Below are positions 3,461-45,597 of a stretch of 64,000 nucleotides of DNA, piece after piece. Made by a program: the position numbers and the translations under genes. The stretch is from Rhizophagus irregularis. Its lineage: Eukaryota. The notes beneath the pieces were generated by a model. It had not been told where the DNA came from and searched no databases. It saw only the letters and a list, made by a program, of their open reading frames with translations. The stretch is from the NCBI RefSeq assembly GCF_026210795.1, contig NC_089432.1, positions 744,001 through 808,000 on the forward strand, in the 5' to 3' direction. The stretch's first letter is position 1. The number at the start of each line of letters is the position of its first letter.

Positions 3461-5223
3461 TTAATAATACTGGTTATCATCATTACTTAAAAAATCTTAA
3501 ATGGAATAGTAATCAAAGAAACTTGTATTAAGAATACAAATGAAAGGACCAATCTACCAAAAAATTTAATTCATTTTATAATAAAAAATAATAAAATTTT
3601 TTATAATAAGGCAAGAAATTTACAATTATTTTCCTAATGTTATACGGTAGTTGAATTATCATCATTATTATCATTATCATTATTTTATATAATTTTAATA
3701 ATTTAAGATACAATAAAATCTGAAAGATGTGATTGGATTATTTAATGATAAATATAAATATATTTATATTCATAGAATTTCATATAATGTCATTACAAAT
3801 GCTTAATATAAAAGTGATAGAAATACTTGAAAAGATAGAATCGTGTAACTTTTACAAATATAAACTAAAAATATCTATTATTCTCTTGAAAATTCAATGA
3901 ATATAGAAAAGTAAGTGAAAACAATATACTATATATTTTTTATATAAAGTTATTCTATTATAACAATGTATCTTTATTTTTATACAATATCGATAAAACC
4001 ATATTCCTTATAACATGATACCTTAGCACTGATAAGAAAAATCAATCTGCTCATATTACATGGAAATTTGATTACAGACCTGGCTACTCTCCTGCTTTTA
4101 CATAAATTAAATAAATAATAAATATTACAGACCCGGAAATTTTCATATTAATTCTTTAAAACTTAAATTGAAATTTCATTATTCTTCTAATAGATCAAAA
4201 ATTCAATGGTTAATTAAATTATTACCTACAAGAAAAATTGTTAAAGATGAATATGGATTCATCTTAAAAGTAAAGATGATTGGCGGAAAAAACAAGATGT
4301 AAATAAAAATAAAAAATCATTATTACATTTAAATGATGATGGATATTGAAGTAAAATTAACTATAATATGTGATGAATTTAAAAAAAATTTACTATAAAT
4401 GAAAAAAATTGATTAAATGATAAAAATACGAGATTTCATTATTAGATTAGAATTAACAACAAATAATTATAAAATATTTTAGAAAAAAATTTTTTACCTG
4501 ATTATAAAATTCTTATGTCAAAATCAGATTATTTAAAGTGTTACTTATTAATGATTGGATTGATTTATTATATGTTTCCTCTAGATTTCTAATACCTAAA
4601 TTGGTTGAAATTTCTGTGAATATTGATGATGTAGAAGAAATTAAATTAATCGCAAGGGAATGTAATGTCATTTAATTAGTTAGATATTGTGAAATGTATG
4701 AAATTAAAAAATAGAACAAATAAAACAGTTGTATAGAAAAGGACTATAGAAATATGAATAAATTGATATATCAAAATCTAACGCATTATAAAGTTATAAT
4801 TAAAATATGAATGATCATTATTTTGCACTAGTCACAAAATTTTTATTTAAGTCTACAAATTTATTAGTGAACAGTCAAAAATGTGTACAAAAAACTTTCT
4901 TGTAACCAAATCTTGCGTCTAACCAATTTTTCCAGTATTATCATTTTTAGGGAAATAGCTTAATCATGTTTCTGTAAGTCAATTTTAATTCACAAGAGCA
5001 CTGCAAAATTTCGTAAATTCATAATATTACTTAACGGTATGAACTGAAAAAAAAATAAACAAATAAAAAAAAAATTTTATTTTTTAATATTGAAAAAAAT
5101 GAAAAGAAATACTGTAGATTTGAACTTTCTATTTAATTATTTCTGAAAAAAAACATTTTAATGGATCCGAAGAAATTTTGTATTGTTACACTATACCTCA
5201 TGTCTCTTACGTCATAATAGCAC

Positions 5224-6769: not shown

Positions 6770-9700
6770 TCAAATCTTGTTCCAGTCAACTAAATATAAT
6801 AAAGTATAAAATATCTTTAATTCAATATCATATTTTAGTAAGTAAAGAATTATAAACTTACCAATCAAATTTGAAGAGAATTTATGATATTCCGAAGGTT
6901 CGGTACTAGTATGCGATTCAGAAATTAAATTACCATCCATTCTTTCAAATTCATCCAATATTTCATTAATAGTTGGTCTTAATCTAGGTTCTTGACTCCA
7001 ACATTTTGTATAAAGTTTCTCATATTTTTCAGGAGTATTGGGAACTAACTTTTCACGAGTATTATTATTAACAATAGAAGCAGCAAGTGCCATTTTATCA
7101 TCAATATGTTTAAATGGAGGATGACCACTAGAAATTTCCCACATTAATACACCAAAGCTATAGATGTCTGAAGATTTAGTATATGGGGATTCTGGATTTT
7201 TAAGATGTTCTGGTCCCATATAAGAAATAATACCAAAATTACCAATATAAGCTGAAGTTTGATTATTTTGATTTTTTGAAATACCAAAATCTGTGATTTT
7301 AGCATTATTTTCATGAATAACTATATTCTTAGAATGCTAAAAAAAAAAATAAATTACATAAATAAATTATTGCTGCTAGTACTAATATGATATTAAATAA
7401 TAAATACTAATACTTACAAGATCTCTATGTAAAATATTTACATGATGCAAATAATTTAATCCATCTGCAATTTGAAATGCTAATTTTTTCTTATCATTCC
7501 ATGTCAAATTATTAAAATTATTTTTGAGATAATTTTGAAGATCCCCATCATTAGCATACTGCATAATAAGAAGATATTCATTTGTTTTTGGATCTAAAAA
7601 TAATTTATAAGAAATTAAAAAAATAACAAAAAATGTAATGTAAAAAAAAAAAAGTTTCAAATTACCTAAACTAATACCAAAGCAACGTATAATTCTTTCA
7701 CTATAATCAAGTTGCATATGCATTTTTAGTTCATGAGTAAATGCATCTAACAAATCATTCTTAATATAAGTTGTGTTAGTTAATTTTTTACAAACAACAT
7801 AATTATTAGTTTTAGTCCAAATTGCTTTAGATATTATTCCAAACCTTCCTGCATCAAGTGGTTCCACATTTTTTAATTCTTTATAAGATATAAGTTTAAC
7901 TTTTTCATATTTTAAAGCATTTTCAATCCATTTATTTGCGCCTAAACTTCCTTTTTCTACTCTTTTAAACGGGCTTTTTAAAACTTCTTTCACCCCTTTA
8001 CCAATCTTATAAAAGAATCCAGGTCTATATTGTGCATTGCTAAATCTTTGTTGAACCGCTTTTTGATACCAATAAGAGGCTTTAACTTCATCTTTTTTAA
8101 CACCAATTCCTTCTTTATAACAAACCCATAAATTAAATTGTGCTTCTTTATCTCCATTTTCTGCTGCTTTTTTATACCAATAGAAAGCTTTTTCTAAATT
8201 CTTTTCTATTCCTATTCCATTTGTATAACATATAGCTAAATTAAACATTGCATAAGTATTACCATTTTCTGCTGCTTTTTGATACCAATGAAATGCTTTT
8301 TCTAAATTCTTTTCTGTTCCTTCTCCATTATAATAACATATGGCTAAACTATTCATAGCAACTTCATTACTATTTTCTGCTGCTTTTTGATACCAATAGA
8401 AGGCTTTTTCTAAATTCTTTTCTGTTCCTTCTCCATAGTAATAATATATGGCTAAACTATTCATTGCAGCTTCATTACCATTTTCTGCTGCTTTTTGATA
8501 CCAATAGAAGGCTTTTTTTAAATTCTTTTCTGTTCCTTCTCCATTGTAATAACATATAGCTAAATTATTCATTTCATTTTTATTGCCATTTACTGCTGTT
8601 TTTTGATACCAATAGAAGGCTTTATCTAAATTCTTTTCTGTTCCTTTTCCATTTTTATAGAATATAGCTAAACTATTCATTGCATAAGTATTACCATTTT
8701 CTGCTGCTTTTTGATACCAATAGAAAGCTTTTTCTAAATTCTTTTCTGTTCCTTCTCCATTTTCATGACATATGGCTAAACTATTCATTGCTTTTTTATC
8801 TCCATTTTCTGCTGCTTTTTGATACCAATAGAAAGCTTTTTCTAAATTCTTTTCTATTCCTTCTCCATTTTTATAACATATGGCTAAACTATTCATTGCT
8901 TTTTTATCTCCATTTTCTGCTGCTTTTAGATACCAATAGAAAGCTTTTTCTAAATTCTTTTCTATTCCTTCTCCATTTTTATAACATATGGCTAAATTAT
9001 TCATTGCAGTTTCATTGTCATCTTCTGCTGCTTTTTGAAACCAATGAAATGCTTTTTCTAAATTCTTTTCTGTTCCTTCTCCATTTTCATGACATATGGC
9101 TAAATTATTCATTGCCTTTTTATTGCCGTTTTCTGCTGATTTTTGAAACCAATAGAAGGCTTTTTCTAGATTCTTTTCTGTTCCTTCTCCATTTTCATGA
9201 CATATAGCTAAATTATTCATTGCATTTTTATCTCCATTTTCTGCTGCTTTTTGATACCAATGAAATGCTTTTTCTAAATTCTTTTCTGTTCCTTCTCCAT
9301 TTTTAAAACATATCATGGCTAAATTAGTCATTGCATTTTTATTGCCATTTTCTGCTGCTTTTTGAAACCAATAGAAGGCTTTTTCTAAATTCTTTTCTGT
9401 TCCTTCTCCATTGTAATAACATATGGCTAAACTATTCATTGCAACTTCATTACTATTTTCTGCTGCTTTTTGATACCAATAGAAGGCTTTTTCTAAATTC
9501 TTTTCTGTCCCTTCTCCATTATAATAATATATGGCTAAACTATTCATTGCAGCTTCATTACCATTTTCTGCTGCTTTTTGATACCAATAGAAGGCTTTTT
9601 CTAAATTCTTTTCTGTCCCTTCTCCATTTTCATGACATATGGCTAAACTATTCATTGCTTTTTTATCTCCATATTCTGCTGCTTTTTGATACCAATAGAA

Positions 9701-12700
9701 GGCTTTTTCTAAATTTTTTTCTGTTCCTTCTCCATTTTTATAACATATGGCTAAATTATTCATTGCAACTTCATTACTATTTTCTGCTCCTTTTTGAAAC
9801 CAATGAAATGCTTTTTCTAAATTCTTTTCTGTTCCTTCTCCATTTTCATGACATATGGCTAAATTATTCATTGCTTTTTTATTGCCATTTTCTGCTGATT
9901 TTTGAAACCAATAGAAGGCTTTTTCTAGATTCTTTTCTGTTCCTTCTCCATTTTCATGACATATGGCTAAATTATTCATTGCATTTTTATCTCCATTTTC
10001 TGCTGCTTTTTGATACCAATGGAATGCTTTTTCTAAATTCTTTTCTGTTCCCATTCCATTTTTATAACATATCATGGCTAAACTAGTCATTGCATTTTTA
10101 TTGCCATTTTCTGCTGCTTTTTGAAACCAATAGAAGGCTTTTTCTAAATTCTTTTCTGCTCCTTCTCCATTGTAATAACATATGGCTAAACTATTCATTG
10201 CAACTTCATTACTATTTTCTGCTGCTTTTTGATACCAATAGAAGGCTTTTTCTAAATTCTTTTCTGTCCCTTCTCCATAGTAATAATATATGGCTAAACT
10301 ATTCATTGCAGCTTCATTACCAATTTCTGCTGCTTTTTGATACCAATAGAAGGCTTTTTTTAAATTCTTTTCTGTTCCTTCTCCATTGTAATAACATATA
10401 GCTAAATTATTCATTTCATTTTTATTGCCATTTACTGCTGTTTTTTGGTACCAATAGAAGGCTTTTTCTAAATTCTTTTCTGTTCCTTTTCCATTTTTAT
10501 AACATATAGCTAAACTATTCATTGCATAAGTATTACCATTTTCTGCTGCTTTTTGATACCAATAGAAGGCTTTTTCTAAATTCTTTTCTGTCCCTTCTCC
10601 ATTTTCATGACATATGGCTAAACTAGTCATTGCTTTTTTATCCCCATTTTCTGCTGCTTTTTGATACCAATAGTAGGCTTTTTCTAAATTTTTTTCTGTT
10701 CCTTCTCCATTTTTATAACATATGGCTAAACTATTCATTGCAGTTTCATTGTCATTTTCTGCTGCTTTTTGAAACCAATGAAATGCTTTTTCTAAATTCT
10801 TTTCTGTTCCTTCTCCATTGTAATAATATATGGCTAAACTATTCATTGCAACTTCATTACTATTTTCTGCTGCTTTTTGGTACCAATAGAAGGCTTTTTC
10901 TAAATTCTTTTCCGTTCCTTCTCCATTTTCATGACATATGGCTAAATTATTCATTGCTTTTTTATTGCCATTTTCTGCTGATTTTTGAAACCAATAGAAG
11001 GCTTTTTCTAAATTCTTTTCTGTTCCTTCTCCATTTTCATGACATATGCCTAAATTATTCATTGCATTTTTATCTCCATTTTCTGCTGCTTTTTGATACC
11101 AATAAAATGCTTTTTCTAAATTCTTTTCTGTTCCTTCTCCATTTTTATAACATATCATGGCTAAACTAGTCATTGCATTTTTATTGCCATTTTCTGCTGC
11201 TTTTTGAAACCAATAGAAGGCTTTTTCTAAATTCTTTTCTGCTCCTTCTCCATTTTTATAACATATGGCTAAATTAAACATTGCATAAGTATTACCATTC
11301 TCTGCTGCTTTTTGATACCAATGAAATGCTTTTTCTAAATTCTTTTCTGTTCCTTCTCCATTGTAATAATATATGGCTAAACTATTCATTGCAACTCCAT
11401 TACTATTTTCTGCTGCTTTTTGACACCAATGAAATGCTTTTTCTAAATTCTTTTCTGTTCCTTCTCCATTTTTATAACATATGGCTAAACTATTCATTGC
11501 AACTTCATTACTATTTTCTGCTGCTTTTTTTTGATACCAATAAAAGGCTTTTTCTAAATTCTTTTCTGTTCCTTCTCCATTGTAATAACAAATGGCTAAA
11601 TTATTCATTGCATCTTTATTGTCATTTTCTGCTGCTTTTTGATACCAATAGAAGGCTTTTTCTAAATTCTTTTCTATTCCTTCTCCATTGTAATAACATA
11701 TGGCTAAATTATTCATTGCAATTTCATTACCATTTTCTGCTGATTTTTGATACCAATGAAATGCTTTTTCTAAATTCTTTTCTGTTCCTTCTCCATTTTT
11801 ATAACATACGGCTAAACCAGTCATTGCATCAATCTGATCCTTTTCTGCTGACTTTTGATACCAATAGAAGGCTTTTTCTGAATTCTTTTCTGTTCCTTCT
11901 CCATTTTTATTACAAATGGCTAAATTATTCATTGCATCTTTATTGTTATTTTCTGCTGCTTTTTGATACCAATAAAAGGCTTTTTCTAAATTCTTTTCTG
12001 TTCCTTTTCCATTTTCATAACATATGGCTAAATTATTCATTGCAATTTCATTACCATTTTCTGCTGATTTTTGATACCAATGAAATGCTTTTTCTAAATT
12101 CTTTTCTGTTCCTTCTCCATTGTAATAACATATGGCTAAACCAGTCATTGCATCAATCTGATTTTTTTCTGCTGCTTTTTGATACCAATAGAAGGCTTTT
12201 TCTAAGTTCATTTCTGTTCCTTCTCCATTGTAATAACATATGGCTAAATTATTCATTGCATTTTTATTGTCATTTTCTGCTGCTTTTTGATACCAATAGA
12301 AGGCTTTTTCTAAATTCTTTTCTGTTCCTTCTCCATTGTAATAACATATAGCTAAATTATATATTCCATTTTTATTGCCATTTTCTGCTGCTTTTTTATA
12401 CCAATAAAAGGCTTTTTCTAAATTCTTTTCTGTTCCTTCTACATTTTTATAACATCTGGCTAAACTATTCATTGCATTAATATGACCATTTTCTGCTGCT
12501 TTTTGATACCAATAAAAGGCTTTTTCTAAATTCTTTTCTCCATTTTCATAACATATGGCTAAATTATTCATTGCAATTACATTACCATTTTCTGCTGATT
12601 TTTGATACCAATAAAAGGCTTTTTCTAAATTCTTTTCTGTTCCTTCTCCATTGTAATAACATATGGCTAAATTATTCATTGCTTTTTTATTGCCATTTTC

Positions 12701-12997
12701 TGCTGCTTTTTGATACCAATGAAATGCTTTTTCTAAGTTTTTTTCTGTTCCTTCTCCATTGTAATAACATATGGCTAAGCTATTCATTGCAACTTCATTG
12801 CCATTTTCTGCTGCTTTTTGATACCAATGAAATGCTTTTTCTAAATTCTTTTCTGTTCCTTCTCCATTGTAATAACATATGGCTAAATTATACATTGCAA
12901 CTTCTTCACCATTTTCTGCTGCTTTTTTATTTTGATGAAATAATTCAGTTTCATTTTTTACACTATTAATTACATTTTTGAATTTTTCTTCAGACAT
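6770..12997 (-). CDS. Giant Sel1-repeat (~45 x 36 aa) protein with C-terminal TKL-type kinase; 4 exons (12997-7666, 7593-7418, 7336-6862, 6789-6770)
   Basis: 1871-aa ORF of AMNxLAICYxNGEGTEKNLEKAFYWYQKAAENG repeats. GT-AG introns restore kinase motifs GRFG, HRDL|HSKNI, ITDFG, YMGPE, SDIYSFG. Confidence 0.9.
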
Positions 12998-16602: not shown

Positions 16603-17286
16603 TCATTGGTATGTTTTACAGGTCACTGGATTATTAAAATTTTCAAATCTCCTTTGATATTTCATGCAACAACTATCACAAATTTTATCATTTACCATAC
16701 CATTCATCTCTTTAATTCTTTTTTTACATTCAGGACATTCTTTTTTGCTACTATAAAATCTATTGCTCCTTTTTTGATAACATTCATGACATTCTCCTAG
16801 TCTAACAGACTTTTTCTTATAACAATGGATACATCCTCCTTCTTTCTTTTTTACTAGTTCTGAAAATGCTGGTGAATTCTTTTTCGTTAGTTTGTCTAAG
16901 GATGCTGATGGTATCTCCTTCTTTTTTTGATAACATTCATAGCATTCCCCAAGTTTAACAGGTTTTTTCTGATGACAATGAACGCATTCTCCAGTAGATA
17001 TATTTTTAATACTTTCATTCTTTTCCATTTGTTCAGAAGATGCTAGTGAATTCTTCTTTTTTTGATAACATTCATAACATTCTCCTAGTTTAACAGGTCT
17101 TTTCTGATGACAATGGATGCATTCTTCAGTAGGTATATTTTCAATCCTTTCATTCTTTTTGTTTAATTCTAAAGATGTTGATGGTATCTCCTTCTTTTTT
17201 TGATAACATTCATAACATTCTCCAAGTCTAACAGGTTTTTTCTGATGACAATGGATGCATTCTTCAGTAGATATATTCTTTTCCAT
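16603..17286 (-). CDS. Cys-rich repeat protein (4 x CxHCxxKKxVxLGECxECYQK, putative Zn-binding); possibly truncated or a pseudogene
   Basis: Repeats visible in the 252-aa ORF; first ATG at 17286; the frame appears to continue past the TGA with another stop. Confidence 0.6.
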   Translation of the reverse strand: MEKNISTEECIHCHQKKPVRLGECYECYQKKKEIPSTSLELNKKNERIENIPTEECIHCHQKRPVKLGECYECYQKKKNSLASSEQMEKNESIKNISTGECVHCHQKKPVKLGECYECYQKKKEIPSASLDKLTKKNSPAFSELVKKKEGGCIHCYKKKSVRLGECHECYQKRSNRFYSSKKECPECKKRIKEMNGMVNDKICDSCCMKYQRRFENFNNPVTCKTYQ

Positions 17287-18384
17287 TTGTTTAAAAGATG
17301 CAAAATTCTGAAGATGTCGCTTGCCTAGGATATGAGGATTTAGGAAATGAGAATATAACAATCCTTATGAATTTAAAAAATTCTTTTTTTTTTTTTTAGA
17401 ATTTAAAAAATTAAGAATTTTTTTTTTTTAGAATTTTTTAACCAATGACAAATGATTCCTATTTATACTTTTATTCTTTACAGATTTGCAAAAATTTCAA
17501 ATTATTTTCCAACATTATATATTTGAAAAAAATTATTTGAAACATTTTGCATTATAAAGAATTTCTTTTAACTGTTACATATTTAATGTTTTTAATTTTA
17601 TATAAATCTGCCATAGAATTAAAATAATAATTTGTTTGACACACTTTTTGGAAATTTTCATTGTAAAAATTATACTTACATATCATTGAAACCATTAATA
17701 AAATCTTCCTAACACTATAGGATCATAATTAAATTTTAAATTTTTAGACTATTTCACTTGAAAATTTTTGAAATACATTATTTAATTGATGTTTAAGATT
17801 GTAAATATATTATTATTATGGTAATGTATAAGAATGATTAGAAAAACCATTTAAAGAATATATTTGTTATAATTAAATTAATTGTTATTGTTAGTGGTTC
17901 ACACCCATTAAATCATTTCCTAGTTAATTAGTTATATACAAAGTTTTAAAATTTTTATTAAGTCATGTGATGTATTTAATTATTAGTCATCTTTTATAAT
18001 ATCTTAGAAACTTGTATTATACCAATAGTCGATTAATCGATACTTTTATGGATGATAGTTTATAATCGTGTACGTGACGTTAGTCTCCATGGTTATTTCA
18101 CGGATCAACCCTGATCTAATCATTCGTGATGATCAATGATTCGGAAGATTTACTTTGCACGTTGGAATATCAGAATATCATGATCTTTACAGCTGCGCCA
18201 TGAAAATCAATCATCGATATCCACATGTAAATTTTTATGTTTTGAATAAATAGTTATTGTCTAACTTACTTTTTTAGCTACTTGAAATACTTCGTAATCT
18301 TTTATTACAATAGTTTCTGAAATACCTATATTAGGAAACCAATTTCCATTATTATAATTATAATTCAAATTATTGGAATTAGGA

Positions 18385-23870: not shown

Positions 23871-26093
23871 CTAACCAATATTTCTGATATTGAGGATACG
23901 TTCATTATGTTTTAACAATATTATCTGATTATTGTGATTGAATTCCGAGGGTCCAGTGATGTTTTTTTGCTAAATTTGTAGTAATGCATAAGAAAAATAA
24001 TTAAAGAACGTTGATTTTTAAGTATTTCTTTTTCTTTTTTAACCCAATTTTATTAATTAATTATAATCGGGTTGGTTTTTTTTTAAACCGAAAAAACTTT
24101 CAAAATTTTTTTTTCGGTTTTTTTTAACCTAATTCCTGTTGATGAAATTTTAATGCTATTTTTTTTTTTTTTGCTAATTACTTAAAAGTTTAATTTGTCT
24201 TATTAATCATATTTTATTTTTTTCCAAACAAAAAAAAATGTTTTTCAAACCAAAATATTTTTTTTTTAGATAGTTCTATTTACTTATTAATTATTAAATA
24301 TTAACATTAATATATGCATCTTTAAGTGCAAAAGCTACTGAACATTTATATAATCAATTTTTTTTAGTTTAGCAAGTGTAATAAGAGATAAGAAATAAAA
24401 ACGTTAGGGAACTTCTTATATATTTAAAGTGTCATAGGTAGTACAAAAGGATACGAAAGGGTCAAATTTTACTGTCTACTAAATTAGTAAAATTTCATAC
24501 ATAAATAAAAAACTTCTATTTGGCTTTTAGACGTAATCTCATTATAATTGTAAATAAAAAAAAACTTATAAAATGAAATAAATTGATAATGTAGTATTTG
24601 CGTAAATTTTCTTAAATACGGATTATTTTATTTTATAATATTTTAAAACATTCAATTTTTTATTTTGGATTTTAATTTAATTACTTTCCATTACTTTGTA
24701 TAGTTGTATAAGGATTTTAAATTAATAGGTATATAGCAATCATGTATGGTATGGTAAGGAACTCTTTCAACTACTTATAACTTTTGAGAAAATAACATAT
24801 CTACGAGAGTGAATAAACAGTTGATGATGTCAGAAATGCGTAAACTTCTCTGTCTATTTTTTTCGTTCTGAAAATTTTTTGGACTGATGATTGATGTATA
24901 GAGTTTTACTAAAAAGTTGTTTTTGACCGGTTTTGTAAAAAAAAAAAGAAAAGAAAATACCCAAAAAGCTGGCAGCCTGGCATGGGCCAAGGTTTTTAAA
25001 AAGGCAAGTCTAGAAAGAAGCAACACAGGATAACAAATAATTAAACCAATTTTAACTTTTTTTATAGTCTTTGGATACTTGGACTTGAACTTTTCGGTCT
25101 TTTGGTGATTAATTAGTGATGGAACATGAGGTGATTGTTGTGGTACTGCAACGAATATTCACACCGTAGTATTACCTACAAGGATAATCATCCTTTGACA
25201 CCAGACCTATTGCATTTGCCAAAATAATAACTTCATTTCCGAGTTCATTAGTAAATACAAAAATAACAAAAATAAAACAAATTGGAAAATCCGCTCAAAT
25301 TTTTTTTTTTATTAAGATCAAATTTCTAAAATTAGTTGTTCATAATTATCACCAATCAAATAATTTAACCCAAATTTTTAATATCAACTTCATATCATCT
25401 ATATAATTAAAATCTATATAATTAAACAAGTGGCATTTTCGTTTCTTATGATGTAATATGTTCATAAACAAGTAGTAATAAATGACAGGAAAGTTGAAGT
25501 ATTAGTAGTTTATTGCGGAACATAGTTACTTTTGGGTTAACTTTATTGTTGTAAACAGGGACAGAAAAGTATAACAATTGTCAACAATGGAATTTGAAGG
25601 TATAAAAAACATGTAAAAGACATCAATATTAAGATATATTTTGTATAGAAAGGGTATATGGTGAAATGAGAAGGTTGGCCAAATAATAAATTAATTTTTT
25701 TTTTGTTTCGAAGTGCTATAATTATTTAAAAACAATATAAAAAAATAGTATAATAAAAATAATAAAAATAAGCAAACTAACTTTACTAATTAATATTATA
25801 TATAAAATAATTTCATTGGTGCCTAATAATTATCTAAGATGAAATGAATAATCAGTTACTGCAAATCTGCAATTTTGTAATAATTGAAATACATTCCGGT
25901 TATGCAACATTTGTTTGTCATATATGCAATGATGCAATGCTTGTACTTGTGAACAACGCTTTTGCACATAATGCATTTTGCATAAATATTATTACCATAT
26001 TTATTCATACAAATAGGGGCTTTTAATAATAATAATAAAAAAAAAAGATATTTACTTTATCCTTTTCAATTAGGGAGAATTTTTGATATAGCA

Positions 26094-29000
26094 ATGGACC
26101 AATGTATTGGTAAAGGTAAAGTATATAACATGAATAATAATATAAATTAGAATTATTCAAAATTATTAAACCAAATTTGCAATATAACAAAACTAGTTTC
26201 TAGTAATATTGAAGAATTTGAGGAAAGTGGTACTGAAGAATTTGAAGGAAGTGGCACTGAAGAATTTGAAAGTAGTAGTATTGATGAATTTGAAGGAAGT
26301 TACACCAAGGAATCTGAAGGTATATCAAACAAACTGAAATTTAAGTTTTTATTTATAAACAATTCAAATACTACAAATATAATTTAGACTAACTATATTA
26401 TATAAAAATTATATTAAATATTTAGCTCGTAAGTTAATATAATTGAATAATAATGAATTACTCATTATTTTATTGTATTCCACATAACTAAATAATTTAT
26501 TCGATGATTAATGATGATGTAGTTAGTAAGTTATCAGTTATTTAAATCTTTAGTCCTTTACTTTATTTATTCTACATATATAACATTCAAATAACTAAAT
26601 TCTTTGCTTAAATAACTATTTAATAATTAATTATATTATTACAGTTGGTAAGTTACAACATATATATTATATTTATTTGTTTAATATTTTACATAATTCA
26701 ACTAATTATATTCTTAATTTAAATAACTAGATTGTAAGTAATATATATAATTTACAGCAAATAATGTTATATTATCTTTATATCCAACTAATTAATAATA
26801 ATTAACAATACTACAGGGTGTAAGTTATATGATATTTATATTTGTATTATTTATAAAATTTAACTAATTCTTTATTTAAAAAATTATTAAATAATATAGG
26901 GGGTAAGTTATTTATTTACTTATAATATTTACATATAATTTAAACTAACTAATTTCTTTATTTAAAAATTATTAGATAATATAGCTCGTAAGTTATTTAT
27001 TTAATTCTATTATTACTTATTGTTATAATATTTTCATATAATTTAAAATAACTAATTTCTTTATTTAATAATATAGCTCGTAAGTTATTTATTTAATTCT
27101 ATTATTACTTATTGTTATAATATTTACATATAGTCTAAACTAACTAATTTCTTTATTTAAAAAATTATTTAATAATATAGTTCGTAAGTTATTTATTTAA
27201 TTCTATTATTACTTATTGTTACAATAATTTAAACTAACTAATTTCTTATTTAAAAAATTATTTAATAATATAGCTCGTAAGTTATTTATTTAATTCTATT
27301 ATTACTTATTGTTATAATATTTACATATAATTTAAACTAACTAATTTCTTTATTTAAATATTATAGGGTGTAAGTTATTCATTTAATTCTATTATTAAAT
27401 AATTTAAACTAACTAATTTCTTTATTTAAAAATATTATTAAATAATATAGTTTGTAAGTTATTTATCTAATTCTATTATTACTTATTGTTATAATATTTA
27501 CATATAATTTAAACTAACTAATTTCTTTATTTAAAAAATTATTTTATAGATGGTAGGTTATTTATTTAATTCTATTACAGTATTACTTATTGTTATAATA
27601 TTTACATATAATTTAAACTAACTAATTTCTTTATTTAAAAAAATTATTAAATAATATAGGGTGTAAGTTATTTATTTAATTCTATTATTACTTATTGTTA
27701 TAATATTTACATATAATTTAAACTAATTATTTAAAATATTATTAAATAATTAAGTGGGGTGTAAGTTATTTATTTAATTCTATTATTACTTATTGTTATA
27801 ATAATTACATATAATTTAAACTAACTAATTTCTTTATTTAAAAAATTATTAAATAATATAGCTTGTAAGTTATTTATTTAATTCTATTATTGCTTATTGT
27901 TATAATAATTACATATAATTTAAACTAACTAATTTCTTTATTTAAAAAATTATTAAATAATATAGCTTGTAAGTTATTTATTTAATTCTATTATTACTTA
28001 TTGTTATAATATTTACATATAATTTAAACTAACTAATTTCTTTATTAAAAAATTATTAAATATTATAGACGGTAAGTTACTTATTTAATTCTATTATTAC
28101 TTAGTTATTGTTATAATATTTACATATAATTTAAACTAACTAATTTAAAAAATTATTTATGATCTAGTTTGTAAGTATCTCTACTGTTACATATTTTATG
28201 TAATATTTATTTGCTAACTGAATTCTTTCATTTAAAAAATATCTGTTACTTTACTAGTTGGTAAGTTGTAAATTGTAGGTTACCATATGTATTTATCTGA
28301 AAAATTAAGACTTATATTAATTAAATTTCTATTTAAATTTTAGAGTAAGTAATGATATATTTTGTGTGAATTATAATACAATCTATAATACAATTTTAAT
28401 TATTTATAGATTTGGAAAAAGTGGAAATGCAATTATAGATGATTTTATTCTTGAAAAAAAATTAAGATGGATTCCTTATAACAAATTTAAAAATGTTGAA
28501 TATCTTACTGAAGGAGGATTTGGTACTATATATAAAGCTATTTGGTTAAAGAATAATAGAGATGGAGATGAAGTAATTCTTAAATGTCACAAGAATTTAA
28601 ATGAAAATTTAAATGAATTTTTAAAAGAAGTATGATAGTATATTATTTTCTATTTTTAATTTGAATTAAAATTTATCTATATTAATAAATTATTATTATT
28701 ATTTATAGTGGGAATATCATACAAGTGTTTTAACTTCAAGAGAAATTATAAATGTTTATGGATTCACAAAAGATCCAAATACTTCAAAATATATGGTTGT
28801 AATGGAGTATGCAAATAAAGGTAATTTAAGAGAAAATTTAGCAAGAATAGTCAAAAATAATTGGAATCAAAAATTATATATGTTGTACGAAATTATTTCT
28901 GGACTTAGTGAGATACATGAAAAAAAACTTATTCATTGTGATTTTCATGATGGTAATATTTTAAATCATAATGATGAGAATGAGGATAAAATTTATATTA

Positions 29001-29741
29001 GTGATTTAGGATTATGTCAACCTGTAAAATCATTTTTGAAAGAGCATAATATTTATGGTGTTGTACCATTTATGGCTCCTGAAGTTTTAAGAGGCAAATC
29101 TTATACCCCAGCTAGTGATATATATAGTTTTTCCATGATTATGTGGGAGTTTACATCTGGAATATCACCATTTAATAATAGAGCACATGATATTCAACTT
29201 AGTTTAAGTATTTGTAAAGGTGAACGTCCTGAAATTATTGAAAATACTCCACAATGTTATGTAGATTTAATGAAAAAATGTTGGAATGGAGATCCATTAA
29301 AAAGGCCATCTACTTCAGAAGTGAAAAAAGTTATTTGTAATTGGATTTTCAGTCCTGATTATGATCAAATTGATCAAATTAATGAAGAATTAAAAAACAA
29401 CATTATGGAATTTATAAATGCACCAATTGGGCATAACAATCTTGCTACTAAATCTCATCCTAAAGCATGTTTTACAAGTCGCTTACTTGATTTTACTAGT
29501 AAAAAATTGAATGAAATTCTTGAAAGTGAAGATTCACAAGCATATCATACAAGTCATTCAGATTTGAATGATTGTGTGATTAAAGATTTGAGGTCATTAG
29601 GTATGTACTATGATATATAAAAAAATTAATCTTGCAAATTATTTATATGAAAATTAATTGATCTATTTAATTATTAAAACAGATGAGAATACTAATAAAA
29701 AGTTGAATGAAATTTTTGAAAGTGAAGATTCAAGTTATTAG
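26094..29741 (+). CDS. TKL-type protein kinase with acidic N-terminus and a micro-exon-encoded segment (exons 26094-26115, 26197-26319, 21 micro-exons 26426-28344, 28410-28629, 28709-29600, 29683-29741; alternative last exon 29874-29896)
   Basis: Kinase motifs EGGFG, VILK, MEYAN, HCDFHDGN, SDLG, MAPE, SDIYSF. The predicted splice path is open from ATG 26094 to the stop. The kinase part is secure; the 5' exon structure is inferred. Confidence 0.8.
26320..28409 (+). repeat. Tandem array of ~80-120-bp intron units, each followed by a micro-exon (mostly 3 nt)
   Basis: Unit pattern GTAAGT ... (AA)CTAAC/T branch-like motif ... YAG + NNN, repeated ~21 times with minor variants; the central units are nearly identical. 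Confidence 0.85.
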
Positions 29742-29988
29742 TGTAAAAGTTAGTAAGTGAATAATTATATAATTAAGGATCTGGGTCATTAGGTATGTAC
29801 TATGATGTATAAAAGAATTAATCTTGCAAATTATTTATGTGAAATTAATTTTATTTAATATTTAATTATTTAGATATTAAAGCGGATGAAAATTAACTAA
29901 TGATTGTTTGTTTTTAAAAAATTTAAAGTGACATTTGATATTGCACATTCAAAAAAAATTGTTTTTATTTTATTCTTTTAAATTTCAG

Positions 29989-39126: not shown

Positions 39127-42100
39127 TTAATCTTCAATCATACAATCAAGACTTTGAGACCCTTCTTCTAAAATTTCGTTAAGTCCGCGACTTGTATAAT
39201 GTGCTTGTGAATGATATTGCATAATAGAAGTACCTGCTTGTTCTTGCACTAAAGCTTTGTCTGCTTCTACAAATTCCAACATATCATTTTTTAATCGATT
39301 ATCAATATCAGATACTTCATACTCATAATTACCATCCTTGTTTATCTCATAATATTTATTAATACATCTAATCCATTCAGATATAATTATTTCAAGCACT
39401 ATTATGGTTGGTCTATTGGATGGATCTGAATCCCAACATTTTTTCATTAAATCTATATAACACTTGGGTGTAGTTTTTATAATTTCAGGTCGTTCCCCTC
39501 TACTACAAATATCCAAGGTAAGGTGATGATCATGTGCTTTATAATTAAATGGAGGAATACCTGATGTAAATTCCCACATTATCATTGAAAAGCTATAAAT
39601 ATCACTTGCTGTAGTATAGGCTTTTTTTCTTAATAATTCGGGCGCCATATAAGGTAAAACTCCATAAATTTTATTCACTTTATTATCAGAATATTGTAAA
39701 TCACTTATAGGTTTACATAATCCTAAATCAATAATAAATAACTCATAATTATCTGATATTAAAATATTACCATCATGGAAATCACCATGAGTTAAATTTG
39801 ATTCATGGATTACTTTAAGTCCTAATATAATTTTTTTCAACAATTGTAACTTTTCTTGCCACTTAAGTTTAATTATATCAGATAAACATTTTCTCAAACT
39901 TCCTTTTTTTGCATAACTCATTATTATTATATAATTTAAATTTTTCGGATCTTGGGTAATTCCAAAAAATTGAGTAAATTTTGAAAATGATTTCTTCTGA
40001 CAATTATAATGATATTTCCACTATATATATATAATAAAAAAGATTATTAAATTTTTGAAAAAGAAATAGAGTATTGCTAATATCACCGTTGGCGATTGTT
40101 ACCTTACCAAAATTAGGGTGGCAGAATTAAAAATTTCATGAAACTCCACCCACTAATTCTGGTACAGTGATGATCATCCATCGGTGATATTTAGGCAATT
40201 TTCAACTATTAAATATAAATACTATACCTCATCCAGAAATTTGCTATTTAAACCTGATGAATTATTAAGTGATTTGAGAATAACTTCATAATCTGTTTGT
40301 CTGTTCCATTGTTGTTTGTCAAAATTCCAACTATAAATAGGTCCATCTGACCAGATAGCTTTATGAATTTCACTGAATCCTCCTTTATCATAATAATTAA
40401 TATTTGACAACTTATTATAAGGTATCCACTCTAAAATTTCATAACTATTTTTAGCATTTAGTTGTGCTTCTTGAATAAATTTATCAATAAATTCATTTTT
40501 ACTAGTCCACTTTGAAAAATCTTGTTGGAATTGTTTAGTATTACATTGTTGGCACCACTGGTAATCAGTATATGGTTGTTTGCACTCATTACATAATTCA
40601 GCTTCATTTTTAGGGTTCATTTTGTTATTTTCTGCAGCTTTTTGATGCCAATAAAAAGCCTTTTCAAAATTCTTTTCTATTCCTTCTCCATTATTGTAAC
40701 TATTGGCCAAATTAATCATTGCTTCAGTATAACCATATTCTGCTGCTTGTTGATACCAATAAAATGCTTCTTTTAAATTCTTTTCTGTTCCTTCTCCATT
40801 TTTATAACATATACCTAAACTATTCATTGCTTCTTTACCACCATTTTCTGCTGCTTTTTGGTACCAATAAAATGCTTCTTCTAAATTCCTTTCTGTTCCT
40901 TCTCCATTTTTATAACATATGGCTAAACTATTCATTGCTTCTTTGTCATCGTTTTTCGCTGCTTTTTGATACCAATAAAATGCTTTTTCTAAATTCTTTT
41001 CTGTTCCTTCTCTATTTTTATAACATACAGCCAAACTATTCATTGCTTCTTTATCATTATTTTCTGCTGCTTTTTGATACCAACAAAATGCTTTTTCTAA
41101 ATTCTTTTCTGTTCCCTCTCCATTTTTATAACATACAGCTAAATTAAACATTGCTCCAATGTGATCTTCTTCTGCTGCTTTTTGATACCAATAAAAGACT
41201 TTTTCTAAATTTCTTTCAGTACCTTCTCCAAGTTCATAACATATAGCTAAAGTATACATTGCTTCAATATAATTTTTTTCTGCTGCTTTTTGATACCAAT
41301 AAAGGGCTTTTTCTAAATTCTTTTCTGTTCCTTCTCCATTTCCATAACATATGGCTAGATTAAACATTGCTTCTTTAACACCATTTTCTGCTGCTTTTTG
41401 ATACCAATAAAAAGCTTTTTCTAAAATTTTTTCTGTTCCTTCTCCAATTTCATAACATATAGCTAAACTATTCATTGCTTTAATATGACCATTTTCTGCT
41501 GCTTTTTGGTACCAATTAAAGGTTTTTTCTAAATTTTTTTCTGTTCCTTTTCCATTTTCATAACATATAGCTAGATTAAACATTGCTTCAATATAATCTT
41601 CTTCTGCTGCTTTTTGATACCAGCAAAATGCTTTTTCTAAATTCTTTTCTGTTCCTTTTCCATTTTCATAACGTATGGAAAGATTAAACATTGCTTCTTT
41701 AATGCCATTTTCTGCTGCTTTTTGATACCAATAAAGGGCTTTTTCTAAATTCTTTTCTGTTCCTTTTCCATTTTCATAACATATGGCTAGATTAAACATT
41801 GCTTCTTTAATACCATTTTCTGCCCCTTCTTGATACCAAGAAATGGCTTTTCCTAAATTCTTTTCTGTTCCTTCCCCAATTTCATAACATATGGCTAGAT
41901 TAAACATTGCCTTAATGTGACCATTTTCTGCTGCTTTTTGATACCAATAAAAAGCTTTTTCTAAAATTTTTTCTGTCCCTTCTCCATTTTTATAGCATCT
42001 ACCTAAACTATTCATTGCTTCTTTATCACCATTTTCTGCTACTTTTTGATACCAATAAAAGGCTTTTTCTAAATTCTTTTCTGTTCCTTTTCCATTTCCA

Positions 42101-45100
42101 TAACATATGGCTAGATTAAACATTGCTTCTTTAACACCATTTTCTGCTGCTTTTTGATACCAATGAAGGGCTTTTTCTAGGTACTTTTCTGTTCCTTCTC
42201 CAATTTCATAGCATATGGCTAGATTAAACATTGCTTTAATATGATCATTTTCTGCTGCTTTTTGATACCAATAAAAAGCTTTTTCTAAAATTTTTTCTGT
42301 CCCTTCTCCATTTTTATAGCATATGCCTAAACTATTCATTGCTTCTTTAACACCATTTTCTGCTGCTTTTTGGTACCAATAAAAGGCTTTTTCTAAATTC
42401 TTTTCTGTTCCTTTTCCATTTCCATAACATATAGCTAAACTATTCATTGCTTTAAGATGAACATTTTCTGCTGCATTTTTATACCAATAAAGGGCTTTTT
42501 CTAAATTCTTTTCTGTTCCTTTTCCATTTTAATAACATATAGCTAGATTAAACATTGCTTCTTTTACACCATTTTCTGCTGCTTTTTGATACCAGCAAAA
42601 TGCTTCTCCTAAATTCTTTTCTACTCCTTTTCCATTTCCATAACATATAGCTAGATTAAACATTGCTTCTTTAACACCATTTTCTGCTGCTTTTTGATAC
42701 CAGTAAAATGCTTTTTCTAAATTCTTTTCTGTCTCTTCTCTATTTTTATAACATATGCCTAAACTATTCATTGCTTCTTTATCACCATTTTCTGCTGCTT
42801 TTTGGTACCAATAAAGGGCTTTTCCTAGATTCTTTTCTGTTCCTTCTCCAATTTCATAACATATGGCTAGATTAAACATTGCTTCTTCAATACCATTTTC
42901 TGCTGCTTTTTTATACCAACGAATGGCTTTTTTTAAATTCTTTTCTGTTCCTTCTCCATTTTCATAATATATAGCTAAACTATTCATTGCTTTAATATGA
43001 CCATTTTCTGCTGCCTTTTTATACCAATGAAAGGCTTTTTTAAAATTCTTTTCTATTCCTTCCCCAATTTCATAATATATAGCTAAACTATTCATTGCTT
43101 CTTTAACACCATCTTCTGCTGCCTTTTTATACCAATGAAAAGCTTTTTCTAAATTCTTTTCTGTTCCTTCCCCAATTTCATAACATATAGCTAAACTATT
43201 CATTGCTTCTTTAACACCATCTTCTGCTGCTTTTTGGTACCAGTAAAATGCTTTTTCTAAATTCTTTTCTGTTCCTTTTCCATTTTCATAACATATGGCT
43301 AGATTAAATATTGCTTCTTTAACACCATTTTCTGCTGATTTTTTATACCAGCAAAATGCTTTTTCTAGATTCTTTTCTGTTCCTTTTCCATTTTCATAAC
43401 ATATGGATAAATTAAACATTGCTTCTTTATCATCATTTTCTGCTGCTTTTTGGTACCAATAAACTGCTTTTTCTAAATTCTTTTCTGTTCCTTTTCCATT
43501 TTTATAACACACAGCTAGATTAAACATTGCTTTAATGTGACCATTTTCTGCTGCTTTTTGATACCAATGAAGAGATTTTTTAAAACTCTTTTCTGTTCCT
43601 TCCCCAATTTTATAACATATGGCTAAAATATTCATTGCTTCTTTATCATCATTTTCTGCTGCTTGTTGATACCAATAAACTGCTTTTTTTAAATTCTTTT
43701 CTGTTCCTTTTCCATTTTTATAACATACAGCTAGATTAAACATTGCTTCATTAACACCATTTTCTGCTGCTTTTTGGTACCAGCAAAATGCTTTTTCTAA
43801 ATTCTTTTCTGTTCCTTTTCCATTTTCATAATATATGGATAGATTAAACATTGCTTCTTTAACACCATTTTCTGCTGCTTTTTGGTACCAGCAAAATGCT
43901 TTGTCTAAATTCTTTTCTGTTCCTTTTCCATTTTCATAACATAAGCCTAAAATATTCATTGCTGCTTTGTTATCATTTACTGCTGCTTTTTGATACCAGC
44001 AAAATGCTTCTTCTAAATTCTTTTCTGTTCCTTTTCCATTTTCATAACATATGCCTAAACTATTCATTGCTTCTTTATCATCATTTTCTGCTGCATTTTT
44101 ATACCAATAAAATGCTTTTTCTAAATTTTTTTCTGTTCCTTCTCCATTTTCATAACATATGGCAAGGTTAAACATTGCTTCCTTAATACCATTTTCTGCT
44201 GCATTTTGATACCAGCAAAATGCTTTTCCTAAATTCTTTTCTGTTCCTTTTCCATTTTCATAATATATGGATAGATTAAACATTGCTTCTTTAACACCAT
44301 TTTCTGCTGCTTTTTTATACCAACGAAAGGCTTTTTTTAAATTCTTTTCTGTTCCCTTTCCAATTTCATAATATATAGCTAAACTATTCATTGCTTTAAT
44401 ATGACCATTTTCTGCTGCCTTTTTATACCAATGAAAGGATTTTTTTAAATTCTTTGCTGTTCCTTCCCCAATTTCATAATATATAGCTAAACTATTCATT
44501 GCTTTAATATGACCATTTTCTGCTGCCTTTTTATACCAATGAAAGGCTTTTTTTAAATCCTTTTCTATTCCTTCCCCAATTTCATAACATATAGCTAAAC
44601 TATTCATTGCTTCTTCAACACCATTTTCTGCTGCTTTTTGGTACCAATAAAAGGCTTTTTCTAAATTCTTTTCTGTTCCTTTTCCATTTTCATAACATAT
44701 GGATAGATTAAACATTGCTTCTTTGGCACCATTTTCTGCTGCTTTTTGATACCAGCAAAATGCTTTTTCTAAATTCTTTTCTGTCCCTTTTCCATTTTCA
44801 TAACATATTGCTAAACTACACATTGCTTCTTTATCAATGTTTTTTGCTGCTTTTTGATACCAATAAAATGCTTTTTCTAAATTCTGTTCTGTTCCTTTTC
44901 CATTTTCATAACATATGGCTAGGTTAAACATTGCTTCTTTAATACCATTTTCTGCTGCTTTTTGGTACCAGCAAAATGCTTTTTCTAAATTCTTTTCTGT
45001 TCCTTTTCCATTTTCATAACATATGCCTAAACTATTCATTGCTTCAATATCATTTTCTGCTGCTTTTTGATACCAGCAAAATGCTTTTCCTAAATTATTT

Positions 45101-45597
45101 TCCGTTCCTTCCCCAATTTCATAACATATGGCTAGATTAAACATTGCTTTAATGTGACTATTTTCTGCTGCTTTTTGATACCAATAAAAGGCTTTTTCTA
45201 AATTCTTTTCTGTTCCTTCTCCATTTTCATAACATATGGCTAGATTAAACATTGCTTCTTTAACACCATTTTCTGCTGCTTTTTGATACCAATAAAGTGC
45301 TTTTTCTAAATTCTTTTCTGTTCCCTTTCCATTATAATAGCAAATTGCTAAATTAAACATTGCTTCAATATGACCATTTTCCACTGCTTTTTGATACCAA
45401 TAAAAGGCATTTTTTAAGTTTTTTTCTGTTTCTTCTCCAGTTATATAATTATTGGCTGAATTAAACATTATTGCTTTATCACATTTCTTACACCATAGTT
45501 CTTTGGTAAAATGTTTATTGCAATATGAACAATTTTTGGAATTTACGTTATTGGTATTTTTATTCAAGATACTTGATTTACTAAATCTGGTTTCCAT
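39127..45597 (-). pseudogene. Giant Sel1-repeat (~45 units) + TKL kinase gene with one in-frame nonsense codon; exons 45597-40228 and 40020-39127
   Basis: ORFs 45597..42529 and 42447..40222 are in the same frame. TAA at 42531-42529 replaces the E/K codon of a repeat. The kinase has HGDFHDGN, IDLG, YMAPE. Confidence 0.85.
40069..40204. mobile_element. MITE-like palindromic element inside the kinase intron (40021-40227)
   Basis: Inverted ends TGCTAATATCACCG..GG / CC..CGGTGATATTTAGGCA; homologous to 22209-22346 and 50420-50467. Confidence 0.6.

Follow-up and report, generated by a model that had tools for sequence, protein, structure and literature searches.

Near-identical introns and variable three-base exons in the middle of a Rhizophagus irregularis protein kinase gene

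The window (the whole 64,000-nucleotide stretch of Rhizophagus irregularis DNA analysed here) is AT-rich eukaryotic DNA with several kinase genes and a set of repeat genes that we take to be Sel1-like. The array described here is the middle part of a protein kinase gene of the R. irregularis type, which opens with two 5′ exons and continues through 20 three-base units and a one-base exon to the kinase exons. The coding part of exon 1 (26094..26115, + strand) begins with the start codon at 26094 and ends in phase 1; an RNA contig of run X20 matches 26081-26115 and departs at the donor at 26116. Exon 2 (26197..26319, +), in phase 1 at both ends, encodes an acidic linker rich in Glu, Ser, and Gly and contains 24-base repeats (tandem repeat at 26210-26300); no Pfam family was matched in it by a Pfam search. 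Its ends are placed by the re-entry of the X20 contig at 26195-26197 and by the departure of an X17 contig exactly at 26319. The X20 contig joins exon 1 to exon 2 via an extra 27-base exon and its product starts Met-Gly, as relatives often do, whereas the window copy starts Met-Asp. This 27-base in-frame exon, found in X20 and in many relatives, is absent from 26116-26196 in the window.

A search for short spacers preceded by AG and followed by GTAAGT or GTAGGT showed three-base spacers in dense succession at a single place, 26426-28260 on the + strand. This stretch comprises 19 clean units and one at 27758 that lacks its AG, and a one-base spacer follows at 28344. The outer 5′ part (26426..26819, +) consists of five three-base exons (starts at 26426, 26523, 26645, 26731, and 26817) that lie between diverged introns and are conserved among relatives. 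In the core array (26900..28170, +), 14 three-base units with 8 distinct triplets alternate with 13 introns that are nearly identical, measure 81-107 bases, run from GT to AG, and contain a CTAAY branch motif; the units start at 26900, 26985, 27077, 27181, 27274, 27367, 27451, 27550, 27660, 27758, 27862, 27966, 28069, and 28168 (+). One unit is damaged (27663..27760, +), with the AG before its triplet missing and a doubled branch motif partly deleted; the triplet is either skipped or read within an in-frame 6-base exon from the AAG acceptor at 27752-27754, and both readings leave the frame open. The last three-base exon (28258..28260, +) is flanked by diverged introns, and a one-base exon, A (28344..28344, +), with AG before it and GTAAGT after it, sets the kinase frame. 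A preliminary description of this DNA had given the array a narrower extent: the units are there, but the array is wider (26426-28344) and includes a unit (27758-27760) without its AG. All seven triplets named in that description are present, and the 72-base intron text that it quoted is exact at 27277 and 27969 and carries 1-4 mismatches at the 6 other donors of the 8 compared.

Two long kinase exons, which contribute most of the protein, follow the array. The N-lobe exon (28410..28629, +) has a weak match to PF07714 (E=0.005), with RNA contigs starting to match at 28410, and the exon for the C-lobe and tail (28709..29601, +) matches PF07714 at E=1.5e-35, with further 3′ exons beyond the mapped part. 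The kinase domain lies above the Pfam cut-off (123 bits vs 23; PF07714/PF00069), and its translation contains what we take to be the glycine loop, the catalytic Lys and Asp, and the DLG and APE motifs. The full model of exons 1 and 2, triplets, one-base exon, and kinase is open over 438 codons; without the one-base exon it meets a stop at codon 77. The protein P0001, named from R. irregularis, matches the 28709 exon with 100% identity across 89% of the query, and of the best matches that carry a name nearly all are from Rhizophagus. At 29494-29850 the last part of this kinase exon and its intron are duplicated over 192 bases, giving the array-bearing gene an extra small 3′ exon.

The RNA data are all assembled contigs, which cannot show alternative splicing; four coded runs were compared with each flank. 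The contigs are few (2 at the 5′ side) and derive from alleles or paralogues of close relatives in two studies. Contig 2 of X17 matches 26260-26319 with 3 differences in 60 bases before departing at the donor, and contig 3 of X18 departs at the end of its shorter exon 2 (matching point 26295). Both go on with 30 letters, which is 10 consecutive triplets joined in each of the two contigs. Over units 1-5, 13 of 15 bases counted by eye are the same as at the window locus in X17 and likewise in X18: all three have CTC as unit 1, unit 2 reads TTA in the window and TTG in both contigs, unit 3 reads TTG in the window, ATG in X17, and GTG in X18, and units 4 and 5 are identical throughout. Units 6-10, also by eye, differ from the window at 11/15 bases in X17 and 12/15 in X18, the two contigs differing from each other at 6/15. 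Among relatives, outer triplets are conserved and the core is fast-changing. The outer units had been described as diverged, and they are so with respect to the core of their own locus, but among relatives they are conserved, triplets included. In the DNA run X9 the two variant letters of X17 (26525 A>G, 26645 T>A) occur with intron sequence on either side, and X4 behaves as DNA, its contigs crossing introns.

The triplets are joined in the mRNA of close relatives in two studies, in agreement with the earlier proposal that they are exons. Because these relatives splice at least 10 triplets, splicing extends beyond the five outer units. No RNA contig of the window's exact allele was found across the core among the runs compared; from the relatives we infer that the window's own core units would be spliced in the same way. 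On the 3′ side, X17 and X18 contribute two contigs each, whose match begins at the acceptor at 28410, and 28629 is joined to 28709 in X17; X19 gave nothing at the 28410-side junction. The 3′ consensuses (2 contigs each) are mixtures, with agreement of 0.83 and 0.73. They end in an A not preceded by GTA, and that of X17 ends in the same triplet as 28258..28260 followed by A. Since the RNA at 28410 ends in A without GTA, a one-base exon fits and a five-base exon does not.

The X20 join fixes the acidic frame of exon 2 and thereby places the triplets in phase 1. The triplets are not codons: each one completes a codon with two of its bases and opens the following codon with its third. Were each triplet instead a whole codon, in phase 0, the array would encode a hydrophobic membrane helix and the product would be a receptor-like kinase; read as codons the triplets do give only hydrophobic and small residues, and some public models read them so (P0005, P0008, P0025). 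We reject this reading as scarcely credible, since the RNA holds exons 1 and 2 in the acidic frame ending in phase 1, the five-base exon required for phase 0 does not fit the RNA ends at 28410 whereas the one-base exon does, and in the related metagenome arrays L003, L053, and L094 the kinase is re-entered in phase 1.

The preliminary description had held that changes are concentrated in the triplets while the central introns are homogenised, and the counts bear this out. The 13 core introns (26903-28167) have a mean pairwise difference of 0.054 vs 0.64 for their triplets, with a GC content of 11% vs 46%. In a stricter count, restricted to the 11 units flanked on each side by a normal intron, diversity per site is 0.046 in 91 non-splice intron columns and 0.67 in the 3 triplet columns, a ratio of 14.7, with at least 18 changes in the former and at least 7 in the latter (binomial p about 1e-5). 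None of the 91 intron columns is as variable as the lowest triplet column. The divergence peak is exactly three bases wide, the intron quarters ranging over 0.033-0.052. On average, core introns are 93-97% identical to the core and outer introns 67-86%, the latter close to the 69-76% of shuffled controls; two outer introns retain clear traces of the core unit (z 4.6 and 6.4). Splice signals are maintained, as had been suggested: all 22 introns (26320-28409) start with GT, 21/22 acceptors are YAG, and a CTAAY motif lies 25-42 bases from the 3′ end in 13/13 core introns.

These signals bear on the possibility that the core at the window locus is an AT-rich satellite, unspliced or wholly skipped within one long intron of a decaying gene. 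Such a reading is consistent with the lack of RNA of the window allele across the core, with the lost acceptor of one unit, with a frame that is retained when all triplets are skipped, and with public models that split the gene (P0137, P0001). We consider it very unlikely, as the donors (22/22 GT), acceptors (21/22 YAG), and branch motifs (13/13) are kept, the frame is open with triplets included, the relatives splice at least ten triplets and thus go past the five outer ones, and a neutral satellite would homogenise the triplets as well. The gene itself may be decaying, because the acceptor is lost in one unit and the Gly2 of many relatives is absent.

A homogeneous core with diverged edges points to recombination among units. 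The earlier suggestion of exon birth by unequal crossover finds little support, as identical neighbours are not in excess at the window locus (3 vs 1.5 expected, P=0.17) or when pooled over arrays (21 vs 16.6 expected, P=0.13; significant in 0/10 arrays), and how much two introns differ depends little on how far apart they lie (rho 0.14, p=0.13), with neighbours slightly closer (p=0.049). With no neighbour excess and little distance effect, the pattern agrees better with conversion involving every core unit than with tandem duplication step by step; gain and loss of units in the array is likely. The near-identical introns could act as homology arms of ~100 bases for conversion within and between arrays, and triplets would be swapped among core units by gene conversion. 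Triplet identity showed no link to flanking intron variants at the window locus (p=0.85, 0.50), and 2/18 linkage tests fell under 0.05, the other 16/18 being not significant; carried-along conversion tracts are therefore unsupported. GC-biased conversion as the cause of the GC-rich triplets was set aside by inference, given that the converted introns remain 10-12% GC.

Because neutral conversion would make the triplets alike as well, something must be keeping them different. On balance we lean towards a mechanism in which conversion keeps the introns alike and probably exchanges triplets between units, and in which the peptide, a putative recognition segment ahead of the kinase, probably owes its diversity to selection; the relatives splice the triplets in order into a single mRNA. 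The three-base divergence peak would then stem from selection acting on the peptide and not from faster mutation. Eight arrays have a known phase, and these are not independent of each other: the least diverse base is the second in 3/4 phase-1 arrays and the third in 4/4 phase-0 arrays, which is the wobble position in 7/8, the exception being L094. Stops are absent from phase-0 arrays (0 vs 5.9 expected, P=0.0004); in phase-1 arrays they are absent too (0 vs 2.1 expected, P=0.075), which is not significant. Wobble tracking together with phase-0 stop avoidance leads us to favour selection on the protein over a mutator, so that, where diversifying selection or targeted mutation had originally been offered as explanations, selection on the protein fits best and targeted mutation is disfavoured.

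Targeted mutation or templated replacement, with or without selection, would alter the three bases between acceptor and donor. It would account for a peak of exactly three bases and for flanking intron variants that do not travel with the triplet. A DNA-level mutator is blind to phase, however, and which of the three positions varies least depends on the reading phase; the triplets contain 45% GC and 4 A among their 60 bases, where the introns have 11% GC, phase-0 arrays avoid stops, and the window showed no enzyme or template that could be a candidate. We therefore give this mechanism only a slim chance.

A more serious competitor, although on the whole unlikely, has conversion homogenising the introns while purifying selection maintains a fixed peptide in each gene, the triplets being older than the intron copies and none of them actively diversified. 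A small triplet vocabulary is common to the window, the RNA of relatives, and other loci, the outer triplets are conserved, and the opsin genes, in the accessible text of PMC3924837, present the same peak with fixed differences. Against this, relatives that are 95% identical in exon 2 nevertheless differ at 11/15 bases in units 6-10, which implies a core turnover far faster than that of the adjoining coding DNA. Such fast turnover in units 6-10 between relatives so alike in exon 2 tends to favour selection for new peptides over the guarding of old ones.

Read in phase 1, the array encodes a peptide with a conserved A-L-x-D-W start, a variable core, and an F-E end before the kinase FGKSGN, preceded by the acidic N-terminus. 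Asp, Tyr, and Trp make up 27/75 residues over 7 glomeromycete-like arrays, a richness that may resemble that of antibody binding loops. The peptide of ~20 residues would bind partners and set what the kinase responds to. Other kinases in the window hold cysteine-pair or Sel1-like segments at the array's position, which suggests that the array may occupy the position of a sensor. Two genes on the - strand (8058-12927 and 40627-45486) each have 45 copies of a 108-base coding repeat, presumably Sel1-like, before a kinase, the second with an in-frame stop at ~42529, and an ORF at 16603-17364 (-) has repeated Cys-x-x-Cys units with a 135-base period.

Exon skipping is a possible second, RNA-level source of variants. 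None of the 171 ordered pairs of the 19 intact triplets makes a stop, so any exon skipping at the window locus stays in frame without stops, and skipping all triplets also retains the frame; in related arrays skipping could make stops (L003 9/153 pairs, L094 3/78). By computation, the 8,192 skip patterns of 13 core units yield 3,400 distinct peptides, a modest gain from the phase-1 junctions over the 3,081 obtained if units were whole codons.

A pattern scan of metagenome contigs gave at least 102 loci, which we filtered for at least 4 regularly spaced units and at least 3 different non-stop triplets. Among the 102 loci listed, 17 pass (L019 and L020 being one contig, with L049, L052, and L084 among the 17) and 85 fail, many of the latter being short TAAG-type satellites. 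A kinase lies directly behind the array in the AT-rich loci L003, L014, and L053 by tblastn and likewise in L094 by its next exon, with L014 also rejoining the kinase in phase 1 as judged by eye. The intron units of these four kinase arrays are weakly similar to those of the window (mean z 1.4-3.1). Unrelated phase-0 arrays with their own intron units (z about 0) occur in L019, L056 (together with L067), and L078. Triplets are more diverse than introns in 8/8 other arrays, by 1.5- to 7.3-fold, with p<0.05 in 5/8.

L019 (3190-8061, +) is a hydrolase-NACHT-winged helix-ankyrin gene, with Pfam matches of the NACHT type and to ankyrin, followed by at least 33 three-base units in phase 0 between near-identical 83-base introns (triplet/intron diversity ratio 7.3). 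Further triplets with weak or GC donors are present at about 5058-5215. L056 (4567-7000, +) and L067 (-) are related genes with 18 and 30 three-base units and introns of ~56 bases; L056 has a GTPase-like 5′ part, and the two share their outer units while their cores are wholly different. L078 (5890-7140, +) has a signal-peptide-like exon ending in Lys-Arg and then ~12 three-base exons leading to a Cys-rich peptide, with diverged introns. Variable triplets with their own intron units (80-113 bases, GC 0.21-0.57) are also seen in L063, L088, L083, L092, L028, and L085. L036, L046, L055, and L007 are AT-rich arrays with glomeromycete-like intron units, and L046 looks decayed, several of its acceptors being lost.

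Micro-exon genes of Schistosoma encode secreted proteins almost wholly from symmetric exons of 6-36 bases. The closest known design is that of the nank (NACHT-ankyrin) genes of Tuber melanosporum, which have dozens of alternatively spliced 3-bp exons (Iotti et al. 2012, as cited in the accessible text of PMC4986451, PMC9815663, PMC10197012, and PMC13449251), and the last of these, from 2026, still terms the mechanism lineage-specific in its accessible part. Like nank, the window gene belongs to an expanded family in a mycorrhizal fungus and has tens of three-base exons (20 units, with 10 joined in each RNA contig of a relative), and for nank too a diverse recognition segment has been proposed in the text available to us. 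L019 has the nank architecture itself along with the signature of alike introns and variable triplets, although its intron units have no similarity to those of the window. The window host, in contrast, is a protein kinase and not an NLR, with only kinase families matched in the Pfam search of the gene; its array is N-terminal (5′ of the kinase exons) where that of nank is C-terminal, its triplets are in phase 1, straddling codons, and a one-base exon closes the array. The window belongs to Glomeromycotina and nank to Pezizomycetes, and alternative splicing is reported for Tuber in the accessible sources, while the window family is known from assembled contigs, which cannot show it.

Other systems resemble parts of the design. 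The WD40 repeats of the HNWD genes of Podospora are near-identical, with a few hypervariable positions that are reshuffled by recombination and under positive selection (PMC9815663, accessible text). The likeness lies in near-identical repeats with few variable positions, and wobble tracking suggests selection on those of the window gene; in HNWD the repeat unit is protein-coding, whereas in the window the conserved unit is the intron and only the variable bases reach the protein. In the red and green opsins, introns are homogenised while selected coding sites are diverged, and a divergence peak in converted DNA is an accepted sign of selection, according to the accessible part of PMC3924837; that case involves two genes and a few fixed sites, whereas in the window a single gene carries 14 such units and its peak spans three bases. 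Exons of one and three bases are spliced in fungi and plants, as single exons and not as tandem arrays: Coprinopsis has 13 one-base and 27 three-base exons, the 27 in 26 genes (PMC12230235), and Arabidopsis a one-base exon (PMC4674806), both as given in the text accessible. In our literature search no such arrays were described in kinases or in Glomeromycotina; most subscription journals and supplements lay outside the search, so genome papers may mention them. The accessible parts of PMC3778014 and PMC8778642 hold nothing on such arrays.

The array is a rare design, known from Tuber, in a new setting, and it is real and spliced in the family. A design known from one truffle gene family now extends to a large kinase family of the main plant symbiont model. 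A tentative and rather doubtful extension is that AM fungi would diversify kinase peptides genome-wide through a CDR3-like segment, borne by many members of the expanded family, spelled by triplets and varied by conversion in DNA and skipping in RNA, that these kinases would serve as variable non-self sensors, and that NLR, GTPase, and secreted-peptide genes would have acquired the same design independently. If so, the non-self sensed by these kinases would be other isolates, endobacteria, viruses, or host plants, and exon skipping in phase 1 would generate novel junction residues without ever making a stop at the window locus. The array design offers a testable candidate for why these fungi keep many kinases and for how a clonal multinucleate fungus could vary recognition, and the 21 consecutive exons of one to three bases make a strong test case for intron-defined splicing.

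Annotations of Rhizophagus are affected, and kinase counts and N-terminal domains need revisiting, as public models split or misphase such genes. At the window locus, P0137 covers exons 1-2, being identical to their product, with read-through after the first triplet, and P0001 covers the kinase C-lobe. The family is expanded, with 786 protein clusters at E<=1e-60 and 29 short proteins that match the exon 1-2 region. The correctly spliced, RNA-supported peptide was found by protein searches in none of the best 120 of the 786, the 29 short proteins, and 81 further proteins. By eye, the read-through ending ARKLI occurs in 6/29 short proteins, which indicates that the first triplet is conserved in the family, and 12 of the best 120 of the 786 models have the SK[FS]G read-through of the one-base exon (the five-base exon version). 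A Met-Gly start is present in 6/29 short proteins, and many relatives begin Met-Gly-x-Cys, presumably a lipid-anchor motif, which the window copy lacks. The N-terminal stretches of P0005, P0008, P0025, P0027, P0089, and P0102, rich in Gly, Leu, Ile, and Met, look like microexon arrays read in the wrong phase.
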